Assembly (NCBI GenBank): GCA_964635935.1
Contig: CAZWNN010000001.1
Location: forward strand, 1 to 48,572
Direction: 5' to 3'
Length of the DNA: 48,572 bases
DNA from: Candidatus Woesearchaeota archaeon
Lineage (GTDB): Archaea > Nanobdellota > Nanobdellia > Pacearchaeales > GW2011-AR1
In this document: piece by piece, positions 46,921 to 48,039 of the stretch
Layout: each line of letters starts with the position of its first letter
Numbering within the stretch: the first letter of the stretch is position 1
The notes under the pieces: model-generated
Told to the model about the DNA's origin: nothing
Databases searched by the model: none
The model's input: only the letters and a program-made list of their open reading frames with translations
Position numbers and translations under genes: made by a program

Positions 46921-48039
46921 TTACGGTTTAGTTCTAAATGTTTCATAAAACTTATCAAAGGAAGGTTGGAATTCAATGTTATCTCTAATAGAATCTACCG
47001 GAGTCCTAGAATAAGAAAAAACATTTCCCCAAGAATAGCCTTTGTCTTTTGAACTTATTTTAGCAATATTATGATAAATCTTTAAAATATTTTTAGAGGT
47101 TTGAGTTACAGGTCTGCCTTCGATTATCATTGGACTTATCCAACTTTCTGCAGTATAGGCATTTAATTCTTCAAGTGCTGGGGCATTCATGGAGGAGATT
47201 GCTAAATGTATCTTTGCACATCTTACTGGACGGAATCTTGACCACACACCCAAGTCTTCATTAAAATAAACTGTAAAAAACTTTTTTGGATCTGTTGTAG
47301 CAAAACGATTTGCAATTTCCCATGAATGAAGTGCTTCATGAACATTCTTCCTTAAAGCGCCTTGTAACCCCGTATCTCCCCCTTTTACAACTATAATCCT
47401 ATGTTGTATGTCATGAAATCCTCCAATACCTTGAAATTTTTCCCCTAACACCTTAAAATCATCAAGATAAGCCCAACGATGAAATCGAGTAACATAAGTT
47501 TCTGTTATCATTTTTTCAAATATTTGTTTACCCCTTAAGGTTGGGATGTTATCATAAATTGCTTTGAGTCTCGGAGCATTCTTCCACACTTCCCCTATGT
47601 TAATTGCATAATCTGGCCAAGTATTTTCTAAATTTAAATACAAAAGTTCTCTTTCAGTTAGTGTACGCCCTGTATGTTGTAATTCCATTTCTGCCAGAAC
47701 TTCTTTAAGTGGCTTTTTAAAAATCCCATTACTATTATGCACAACCACCCCACCACCAACAACATAATTATTAATCCCCGCATCATCCTCAATATTAAAC
47801 ACCTCAACATCATCAACAACTCTTTCAATTGAAGTTATCCGAGCCAACTTACCATCAACCGTCGTCAACTCATCCCCTATATTAAGTTCACTAGCAACCA
47901 CCCACTCACCACCAACTAAAAAAGGATGCTCAGTAGTCACTCTCAATTCCCCTATTAAATCTGAACCAGAACCAACAAAAGAAACAAGCCCAACTAATAA
48001 AATAATCCCAACCAACAAACCAAAATATCTTTTCATCAC
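46921..48039 (-). CDS. Secreted C-terminal Hint-half fused to cargo domain 3 (HExxH)
   Basis: Signal-like segment, then GELRVTTEHPFLVGGEWV...VFNIEDDAGINNYVVGGGVVVHN|SN (nt 47734..47952). A 270-aa unique domain follows, containing HEALH (nt 47326..47340). Confidence 0.75.
   Translation of the reverse strand: MMKRYFGLLVGIILLVGLVSFVGSGSDLIGELRVTTEHPFLVGGEWVVASELNIGDELTTVDGKLARITSIERVVDDVEVFNIEDDAGINNYVVGGGVVVHNSNGIFKKPLKEVLAEMELQHTGRTLTERELLYLNLENTWPDYAINIGEVWKNAPRLKAIYDNIPTLRGKQIFEKMITETYVTRFHRWAYLDDFKVLGEKFQGIGGFHDIQHRIIVVKGGDTGLQGALRKNVHEALHSWEIANRFATTDPKKFFTVYFNEDLGVWSRFRPVRCAKIHLAISSMNAPALEELNAYTAESWISPMIIEGRPVTQTSKNILKIYHNIAKISSKDKGYSWGNVFSYSRTPVDSIRDNIEFQPSFDKFYETFRTKP

Follow-up and report, generated by a model that had tools for sequence, protein, structure and literature searches.

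A composition step inside secreted cassettes of a Woesearchaeota archaeon as the probable module boundary of a split Hint effector system

Introduction

The stretch of DNA analysed here (the window) comprises 48,572 nucleotides of the forward strand of contig CAZWNN010000001.1 from assembly GCA_964635935.1 of a Candidatus Woesearchaeota archaeon. It contains three minus-strand genes, designated cassettes 1, 2 and 3, each of which encodes a leader, the C-terminal part of a Hint domain ending in His-Asn (IntC), and a cargo that begins with Ser. An earlier note on this DNA described a sharp change in base composition at the His-Asn/Ser (HN/S) junction of the cassettes, and attributed it to recombination or gene conversion anchored in the Hint half that swaps foreign cargo modules. 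The locus raises the question of what the composition step separates, and where the missing N-terminal part of the Hint domain is encoded. We propose, with a probability of about 70%, that the step is a module boundary in an effector system of a DPANN-type archaeon built on a naturally split Hint domain of the A-type BIL (intein-like domain of bacteria) or PT-HINT kind. The cassettes are organized as follows.

Cassette 1: 36030..36974, minus strand; 314 residues; leader 36891-36974, IntC 36672-36890, cargo 36033-36671
Cassette 2: 37814..39169, minus strand; 451 residues; leader 39077-39169, IntC 38855-39076, cargo 37817-38854
Cassette 3: 46921..48039, minus strand; 372 residues
Cassette 3 leader, codons 1-29: 47953..48039, minus strand; Sec-type signal peptide predicted from the translation (MKR, hydrophobic run, SGS), with features common to 133 family members
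Cassette 3 IntC: 47734..47952, minus strand; C-terminal ~60% of a PT-HINT/BIL domain (GELRVTTEHPF...VVVHN), assigned by positions 61-137 of the 137-position Pfam profile PF07591 and by tblastn
Cassette 3 cargo: 46921..47733, minus strand; starts at the +1 Ser; orphan 270-residue domain with a HEALH motif; stop codon 46921-46923

Composition step between the Hint half and the cargo

The HN/S junctions lie at 47734/47733 in cassette 3, 38855/38854 in cassette 2 and 36672/36671 in cassette 1, in agreement with the positions given in the earlier note (47734, about 38855 and about 36672). The nucleotide counts on which the step was originally based were exact: on the plus strand, positions 47741-47952 of cassette 3 contain 14 G and 76 C, and positions 46921-47132 contain 33 G and 30 C. 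The latter segment is the far 3' end of the cargo rather than the part flanking the junction. The 212 nucleotides abutting the junction on either side also form a step in all three cassettes, with the plus-strand GC skew changing from IntC to cargo from -0.66 to -0.16 in cassette 3, from -0.63 to -0.22 in cassette 2, and from -0.56 to -0.14 in cassette 1. In a nucleotide alignment of the cassettes, homology extends from the leader to CAT AAT AGT AAT, which encodes HNSN, and nothing can be aligned beyond it. A skew profile lacking the step and identity continuing equally into the cargo, either of which was to count against the original interpretation, were thus not found.

The position of the switch was located by a likelihood change-point test on third codon positions (permutation P ≤ 0.001). 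The change falls after codon 107 in cassette 3 (support 103-111; the junction Asn is codon 102), after codon 120 in cassette 2 (support 108-123; Asn is codon 105), and after codon 115 in cassette 1 (support 104-132; Asn is codon 101). The switch is real in three of three cassettes; the claim that it coincides exactly with the junction has to be relaxed, since the change-point is at the junction or a few codons downstream of it.

The plus-strand skew of minus-strand genes in the window is strongly negative already as background; IntC is therefore background-like, and the cargo is the odd part of the cassette. Four-fold degenerate sites were compared in order to control for amino-acid content, with the following base frequencies.

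Core genes on the minus strand: A.16, C.02, G.26, T.56
Core genes on the plus strand (mirror image): A.55, C.21, G.04, T.21
Accessory genes on either strand: A ~.4, C ~.1, G ~.1, T ~.4
IntC, pooled: A.07, C.01, G.28, T.64
Cargo, pooled: A.37, C.06, G.11, T.46

The two gene classes are distinguished by position-specific counts and four-fold sites. The core class includes the genes for HisRS, GyrA/B, Kae1, an Obg-like GTPase, ScpA and an ABC transporter, and the accessory class those for a radical-SAM protein, peptidase S51, HD, NYN and CPCC proteins, and hypothetical proteins. At third codon positions, core genes are G/T-rich on the minus strand and A/C-rich on the plus strand, and this strand-dependent bias is a replication-strand signature. 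Accessory genes, which are interspersed on both strands and occupy about one third of the window, have no strand bias, a third-position GC content of ~0.2, and similar frequencies of A and T. The silent-site composition of IntC is core-like and that of the cargo accessory-like, and the cassette leaders resemble IntC. In cassette 3, the four-fold frequencies are A.03, C.00, G.37 and T.60 in IntC and A.36, C.11, G.14 and T.38 in the cargo, so that A and C together account for 1 of 35 sites in IntC and 47 of 99 in the cargo.

Recoding with swapped codon tables attributed ~70% of the raw GC-skew step to amino-acid content and ~30% to synonymous codon usage. The large share of the former comes from the abundance of GNN codons (Val, Gly, Glu and Asp) in the Hint half. 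The step in AT skew is mostly synonymous. The part of the step that is left after the amino-acid effect reflects the different histories of IntC and cargo.

A change-point scan of all genes in the window found comparable intragenic switches only in the gene of the giant scaffold protein described below, at the 3' end of gyrB, and in gyrA. The strongest one, in gyrA, coincides with a LAGLIDADG intein at 31751-33061. The gyrA gene (31322-35134) contains a full 437-residue intein with a LAGLIDADG endonuclease (CVSGDS...FISHN/T). The four-fold frequencies of the intein (C.04, T.38) differ from those of the extein (C.22, T.21). The intein departs from its host gene as the cargo does from IntC, and is thus a positive control within the window for a distinct composition of mobile DNA at silent sites in this genome. 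At two loci from other genomes (L003 and L006), IntC has similar frequencies of A and T and the composition switch is absent, whereas an Aenigmatarchaeota locus (L007) exhibits the same contrast between IntC and cargo as the window. Therefore, the switch is not intrinsic to the coding of a Hint domain.

Recombination among the cassettes

79-nucleotide identical tract: 47781..47859 in cassette 3, equal to 38905-38983 in cassette 2, minus strand; inside IntC; gene-conversion patch

The 79-nucleotide run shared by cassettes 2 and 3 is identical as originally described, and cannot be extended in either direction. Over the 225 nucleotides of IntC, cassettes 1 and 2 are 78.2% identical, cassettes 1 and 3 77.3%, and cassettes 2 and 3 85.8%. 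The 32 differences between cassettes 2 and 3 are distributed as 23, 0 and 9 over segments of 93, 79 and 53 nucleotides, and the chance of a run of at least 79 identical positions, given 32 differences in 225 nucleotides, is below 1/20000. Cassette 1 differs from both cassettes 2 and 3 at 22 sites within the tract, so that nucleotide-level constraint does not explain the run. All 22 informative sites in alignment columns 195-263 pair cassette 2 with cassette 3, as opposed to 20 of 76 sites elsewhere, and informative sites in the 5' part of the modules mostly pair cassettes 1 and 2. The modules composed of leader and IntC are accordingly mosaic (MaxChi permutation P < 0.001). They trade patches by gene conversion, and the 79-nucleotide run, which is internal to IntC and separated from the junction by nine differences, is one such patch.

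A population variant of the locus from another sample (L014) has seven differing positions in 3.7 kb. Six of them are packed into 21 nucleotides just upstream of the start of cassette 3 (48057-48077), and the remaining one, at 47803, is located inside the 79-nucleotide tract and would break the identity between cassettes 2 and 3. This pattern suggests further micro-conversion events.

Paralogous IntC sequences in one Nanoarchaeota metagenome-assembled genome (MAG) share 87-94% nucleotide identity up to HNS, and their similarity is random right after it. Recombination anchored in the Hint half and bringing in foreign cargo, as the earlier note proposed, is supported by four independent lines of evidence: silent-site composition, mosaicism of the modules, shuffling of cargo among metagenome cassettes (see below), and the Nanoarchaeota paralogues. 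The ~300-nucleotide module of leader and IntC is a long-resident element that evolves in concert and carries the strand-specific silent-site bias of the genome, whereas cargos are shuffled between cassettes and between genomes through recombination anchored in the homology of IntC. Contigs of the KR11 Nanoarchaeota MAG break in the repeated IntC, with the end of L009 and the start of L004 lying within the same leader-IntC module. Therefore, cassette arrays are probably under-assembled in MAGs, and the numbers of cassettes are underestimated.

Repertoire of cargo domains

The cargos of the three cassettes have no detectable similarity to each other, which bears out the original observation. The cargos of 126 related metagenome cassettes fall into 81 unrelated families. 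IntC identity does not depend on whether the two cargos of a pair belong to one family (56.5%) or to different ones (56.3%), the nearest IntC neighbour has a cargo of the same family in only 5 of the 126 cassettes, and 174 pairs combine IntC sequences that are at least 75% identical (some 100%) with unrelated cargos. Cargo family is thus independent of IntC similarity in this set; the degree of independence is overstated, because clustering of the representative library at 50% identity drops pairs that are alike in both IntC and cargo, and the positive cases stand.

All cargos with Pfam matches are effector-like, and include Fic, AvrB, a Scabin-type ADP-ribosyltransferase, a lethal-factor protease, a transglutaminase and PRTase-CE. 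The HEALH motif in the cargo of cassette 3 and kinase-like motifs in that of cassette 2 were recognized by eye only, and have no support from Pfam, NCBIfam or PDB. The combination of a conserved presentation part, hypervariable C-terminal domains and stand-alone cassettes, which defines polymorphic toxin systems in the sense of Zhang et al. 2012 (PMC3482391), is found here.

Cassettes are repeatedly trailed by one or two convergent genes. Those downstream of cassettes 1 and 2 are small gene pairs lacking informative family matches, as are the genes following cassettes at L004 (881-1905 and 2884-4082), L007 (7802-8617 and 9866-10702) and L017 (5156-6449). L004 and L007 each have a metallophosphoesterase-like convergent gene, and the window has a HAD-like one. 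The convergent genes may move together with the cargo and provide immunity or accessory functions, a role for which there is no family support.

The Hint domain is predicted to be split between two genes

IntN: 41870..42058, minus strand; N-terminal 63 residues of the Hint domain (Gly followed by CFLAGTKV...YLIIKYEVIEE), with the stop codon directly after it at 41867-41869
Giant scaffold protein: 41867..45700, minus strand; 1277 residues; has a signal peptide, 56 Cys residues, a hydrophobic hairpin (residues 907-958) and a C-terminal IntN

The IntC sequences of the cassettes match positions 51/61-137 of the 137-position PT-HINT model in Pfam. The complementary part is located at the end of the giant protein, which terminates in ...SSGPG followed directly by CFLAGTKVLMADWTYKNIEDVVVGEKVIAYDIEGEEPVEATVETTFVRDAEEYLIIKYEVIEE and the stop codon; this tail (IntN) matches positions 7-50 of PT-HINT, positions 1-32 of Hom_end_hint, and the start of the Hint model. 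The window contains exactly one IntN and three IntC. Joined in silico, IntN and IntC give one uninterrupted PT-HINT match over positions 7-137 (52.8 bits, E 6e-14, cut-off 27.7), whereas each half alone scores 19-30 bits over its part of the profile. The joined sequence is colinear with 27 contiguous Hint domains, and the break falls in the turn before block B. The strong raw skew of IntN is due to its amino-acid content, and at silent sites IntN is no different from the rest of the giant gene.

AlphaFold2 predicted the joined halves with a predicted local distance difference test score (pLDDT) of 92.3 and a predicted template modelling score (pTM) of 0.85, with the junction forming a loop. 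The model rests on the alignment of contiguous homologues, and pLDDT decreased to 50 when the alignment was omitted. A Foldseek search with the joined model retrieved BIL domains first (Clostridium thermocellum 2lwy, template modelling (TM) scores 0.86/0.89, 33% identity; Tetrahymena BUBL 6y75), followed by mini-inteins and split-intein structures, with TM scores of 0.7-0.89 among the top matches. The joined halves are thus predicted to adopt the Hint fold.

The catalytic residues of Hint domains, Cys1, Thr and His of block B, and the C-terminal His-Asn, are all in place. All nine IntN copies have Cys1, with no variation among the four IntN sequences that were aligned, and it is directly preceded by Gly in the IntN of the split clade. 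Residues T35, H38, H101 and N102 are invariant in 133 cassettes. The +1 position is occupied by Ser, one of the nucleophiles (Cys, Ser or Thr) expected at this site in split inteins, in the three cassettes of the window and in 127 of 133 relatives; the +2 residue is variable, and contiguous Hint relatives mostly have Lys after HN. A frameshift or an assembly artefact as the cause of the split was ruled out by the same stop position in nine independent loci and by the inserted signal peptide. The domain is not a single contiguous one, as the reading frame stops after residue 63 in the window and the C-terminal half follows a signal peptide in separate genes. Profile matches and models together indicate a Hint domain that is naturally split between the giant protein, which carries the N-terminal half, and the cassettes, which carry the C-terminal half. 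The two separately encoded fragments complete one Hint domain as in split inteins; their predicted exteins are not halves of one host protein, and instead are a giant surface protein and at least 81 unrelated cargo families.

Conservation across DPANN archaea

An exhaustive profile search with the alignment of leader and IntC detected 804 representatives at E ≤ 1e-10. Among the best 152 of the 804, 133 consist of leader and IntC followed by a cargo of 20-658 residues. The leaders have two or three Lys/Arg residues at the start and an uncharged run of ~18 residues, and in 82 of the 133 a small-x-small motif ends zero or one residue ahead of the first strand of IntC. This pattern looks like a Sec signal peptide, the cleavage of which would expose the split site. 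All genome matches are DPANN MAGs (Nanoarchaeota/Nanoarchaeia, Woesearchaeota and Aenigmatarchaeota), and distant contiguous forms occur in myxobacteria. The features of the cassettes are kept across archaeal phyla at ~50% identity.

IntN homologues at eight loci (L006, L007, L009 and L017-L021) stop 62-67 residues after Cys1, and more distant relatives of IntN are contiguous. One contiguous protein, P0115, is a member of the split clade (...YRIIEYGLAGKLKVTQEHPF...VVHNS followed by cargo). At L019, the giant protein with IntN, a YD/Cys-rich protein and a cassette are arranged exactly as in the window. At L007, the giant protein with IntN is followed by a YD-repeat protein, and the opposite strand has two cassettes close by, of which one has a Fic cargo. 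At L009/L020 and L017, the start of the first cassette of the array overlaps the gene of the giant protein with IntN. The giant proteins have little in common except IntN, which is 49-60% identical between them and therefore acts as a portable adaptor. Distant relatives among database proteins (P0004, P0008, P0025, P0026 and P0046) have an unusual architecture of two to five tandem contiguous Hint domains joined by short linkers (...HNK-GC...).

Proposed mechanism and alternative explanations

The system probably works as follows. The product of a cassette consists of a Sec signal peptide, the C-terminal half of the Hint domain from the Thr and His of block B to the terminal HN, the +1 Ser, and an unrelated cargo. 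The missing N-terminal half, from Gly and Cys1 to YLIIKYE, corresponds to the last 63 residues of the 1277-residue secreted Cys-rich giant protein. Both proteins are predicted to be exported, and cleavage by signal peptidase would expose the N-terminus of IntC exactly at the split site. IntC may then dock onto the IntN of the giant protein, so that the Hint fold is rebuilt outside the cell. The rebuilt domain would use Cys1, Thr/His, His-Asn and Ser+1 to trans-splice the cargo to the C-terminus of the giant protein, or would cleave at the junction. In this way, a single scaffold could be armed with any of several effectors. Trans-splicing onto the giant protein is favoured since Gly-Cys1 and the +1 Ser are conserved and neither is required for cleavage by Asn cyclization. 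BIL domains ligate or cleave flanking polypeptides, and an artificially split BIL of C. thermocellum reportedly trans-splices. It is possible, though somewhat less likely than not, that the split Hint of DPANN archaea is an extracellular ligation device in which one IntN on a giant scaffold accepts several secreted IntC-effectors, so that polymorphic effectors are put together post-translationally, and recombination in IntC renews the repertoire.

Several points weigh against the proposal of a module boundary in a split Hint effector system. We infer the association of the halves, and splicing in preference to cleavage, from sequences and structure models. One or two moderately hydrophobic segments precede the IntN of the giant protein by ~300 residues. 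They could form a membrane hairpin or a translocation element, and the side of the membrane on which IntN lies depends on them: if the spans were odd in number, IntN would be in the cytoplasm, where it could not meet the exported IntC. The +1 Ser could be kept partly through its location inside the recombining module. Amino-acid composition, as opposed to foreignness, makes up ~70% of the raw step between G and C. The 79-nucleotide tract stops short of the junction, and shows exchange between IntC copies rather than a swap of cargo. Cargo swapping between strain variants, for which the earlier note had suggested a comparison, was absent from the other-sample contigs L014-L016, which are 99.8-100% identical to the window. 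The clustering of the library inflates the independence of IntC and cargo, as stated above. Searches of Pfam, NCBIfam and PDB sequences gave no match for the cargos of the three cassettes, and the cargo of cassette 3 also had none in a database search. Finally, no gene downstream of the cassettes is co-directional with them, and the window contains no obvious immunity genes. The Gly/Ala/Ser-rich hydrophobic segments are located at residues 907-958 of the giant protein of the window (42830-42980) and at residues 995-1013 of that of L007.

The serious alternative to splicing is that the halves reassemble and only IntN-dependent C-terminal cleavage by Asn cyclization takes place, so that free cargo is released and never ligated to the giant protein. 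PT-HINT has been described as a releasing peptidase just ahead of toxin domains (PMC3482391), and the prevalence of HN followed by Lys, with no +1 nucleophile, in contiguous relatives makes cleavage the likely ancestral activity. The invariant Cys1 preceded by Gly in the IntN of the split clade, and a +1 Ser retained in 127 of 133 cassettes while +2 varies, would be superfluous for release, since Asn cyclization requires neither; we therefore consider release without ligation unlikely, although it is the strongest of the competing explanations. Much less probable is that the composition step has no historical signal and reflects only the amino-acid content and codon preference of the Hint half, next to a cargo that is not foreign. 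The predominance of amino-acid content in the raw GC-skew step agrees with this, as does the skew of ~0.5 that IntC keeps when recoded with the codon usage of the cargo. Nevertheless, four-fold sites alone differ strongly between IntC and cargo, as in cassette 3, the bias is missing from IntC of L003 and L006, and the composition classes follow the division between core genes on one side and accessory genes and the mobile GyrA intein on the other.

The cassettes could also be orphan substrates of recombination in the manner of Rhs, CdiA or MafB, which gain importance only once recombined onto a full-length gene, with the Hint fragment serving as a homology patch that has no role at the protein level. 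The abrupt end of homology at HNSN and the gene conversion among copies would be expected in this case, and Neisseria mafB-CT cassettes open with a slightly truncated BIL (PMC4287609). However, neither the window nor the eight syntenic loci contain a contiguous full-length Hint gene, and the scaffold always stops after IntN. Moreover, a start codon is present in every cassette, as is a well-formed signal peptide that is positioned precisely at the split site, cassettes have promoters or operon positions, and conservation across archaeal phyla at ~50% identity implies selection on an expressed protein. We regard this explanation as improbable. The same is true, to a slightly greater degree, of the suggestion that the truncated Hint has degenerated into a non-catalytic N-terminal module, for adhesion or targeting for instance, in secreted proteins that act independently, and that its co-occurrence with the IntN of the giant protein is incidental. 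Some cassettes (L001 and L002) are indeed on contigs with no IntN nearby. This suggestion is at odds with the invariance of all catalytic residues, the exact complementarity of the fragments in profile and fold, and the repeated synteny, and a beta-rich half-domain is unlikely to fold alone.

Neighbouring genes and promoters

YD/RHS-repeat Cys-rich secreted protein: 39192..41870, minus strand; 892 residues; between the giant protein and cassette 2; syntenic in relatives
Dockerin/EF-hand-like secreted protein: 45693..46880, minus strand; 395 residues; opens the operon of the giant protein
Membrane protein with two transmembrane segments: 48036..48488, minus strand; 150 residues; co-transcribed with cassette 3, start and stop codons overlapping in ATGA
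Small gene pair convergent on cassette 1: 35159-35761 and 35814-36041, plus strand; candidate accessory or immunity genes
Small gene pair convergent on cassette 2: 37025-37450 (HAD-like) and 37492-37803, plus strand; convergent arrangement

An identical motif of ~20 nucleotides, AAACACAAATCCTTATAAAT on the coding strand, is present on the minus strand at 46895-46920 and 48496-48521. Its copies are positioned ~25-30 nucleotides upstream of the start codons of the 395-residue and 150-residue genes, and look like an archaeal promoter with a B recognition element and TATA box (BRE/TATA) common to both operons of the system. Cassette 1 has a promoter region of its own upstream, which differs from that containing AAACACAAATCCTTATAAAT. 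A gene of the eIF2-gamma type is located just past the right end of the window (L014 33-938). Together with Kae1 and the TATA-like promoters, it supports an archaeal host that possesses DNA gyrase.

Significance

The DNA-level result alone is a clean and quantified case of module exchange anchored in a Hint domain, with the GyrA intein as an internal positive control. If the halves reassemble, polymorphic effectors would be diversified by combinatorial protein assembly on top of the shuffling of DNA cassettes, and a natural split Hint would have a role beyond the maintenance of essential genes. It would also offer a way of studying the arming of giant surface proteins with effectors such as Fic, ADP-ribosyltransferase and protease domains in DPANN episymbionts with reduced genomes. 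More than 80 cargo families would become available for mining, along with a large family of short split-intein pairs, probably compatible with one another, for protein engineering in an oxidizing extracellular setting. As an extracellular ligation device, the system would represent the first one-to-many split intein in nature, and the first case of such an intein acting after export.

Comparison with known systems

The system appears to be an undescribed two-piece protein-assembly system of DPANN-type archaea. We found no description of a natural split BIL or PT-HINT domain in the literature searched, in which archaeal polymorphic toxins are incompletely covered, so that an earlier description is possible. 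Nor was the combination found described of a Hint domain split before block B, a signal peptide on the C-terminal half, one IntN for several IntC-effectors, and wide occurrence in DPANN archaea.

HINT/BIL domains directly before variable toxin tips, and the recombination of cassettes, are established for polymorphic toxins (PMC3482391). The proteins of the window resemble PT-HINT toxins in domain family, by profile and fold, in the position of the domain just upstream of a hypervariable C-terminal effector, in being secreted, and in having RHS/YD-repeat partners. They differ in that two genes are involved, of which one encodes a scaffold ending with the N-terminal half, and several alternative cassettes carry the C-terminal half behind a signal peptide of its own. 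Furthermore, the +1 Ser is conserved, co-directional immunity genes are lacking, and the hosts are DPANN archaea.

The closest precedent at the DNA level is the set of BIL-initiated mafB-CT cassettes of Neisseria: in class-1 MafB islands, expressed mafB-CT cassettes start with a BIL that lacks seven residues (PMC4287609). The alternative C-terminal cassettes open with a Hint/BIL sequence in both systems, and in Neisseria this sequence is the sole homology for exchange with the main toxin gene. The Neisseria cassettes contain a nearly complete BIL and no signal peptide, they are followed by mafI immunity genes, and the main mafB can hold a complete BIL. In contrast, the domain in the window is broken behind residue 63, and the C-terminal half is never part of the main gene.

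The analogy drawn in the earlier note with the displacement of Rhs/CdiA C-terminal tips is a loose one. Like Rhs and CdiA, the cassettes have a conserved anchor followed by an abrupt change to unrelated, horizontally exchanged tips, and arrays of alternative tips are near the main gene. The analogy fails in that the locus has no full-length gene with a tip to displace: the IntC anchor is absent from the scaffold gene, and the cassettes are complete genes bearing signal peptides. Orphans of Rhs and CdiA have no export signals and usually no translation starts, act only after DNA recombination, and belong to toxin-immunity pairs. Diversification of the system in the window can also act at the level of proteins.

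The structures closest to the joined model are the C. thermocellum BIL (PDB 2lwy) and the BILs of Tetrahymena BUBL (6y75/6tmm), with TM scores of 0.84-0.89. Both are contiguous in nature, and the C. thermocellum BIL has been split in the laboratory. Natural split inteins, for which we considered cyanobacterial DnaE, the phage and metagenomic gp41-1 and NrdJ-1, and the atypical AceL-TerL type, share with the present system the separately encoded complementary Hint fragments, Cys1, Thr/His of block B, the terminal His-Asn, and the +1 nucleophile. To our knowledge, neither canonical nor atypical split inteins are divided at the present site, a turn ahead of block B near residue 63. Whereas split inteins reconstitute one essential enzyme, the halves described here would link a scaffold with interchangeable effectors, pair one IntN with many IntC, and are both predicted to be exported.

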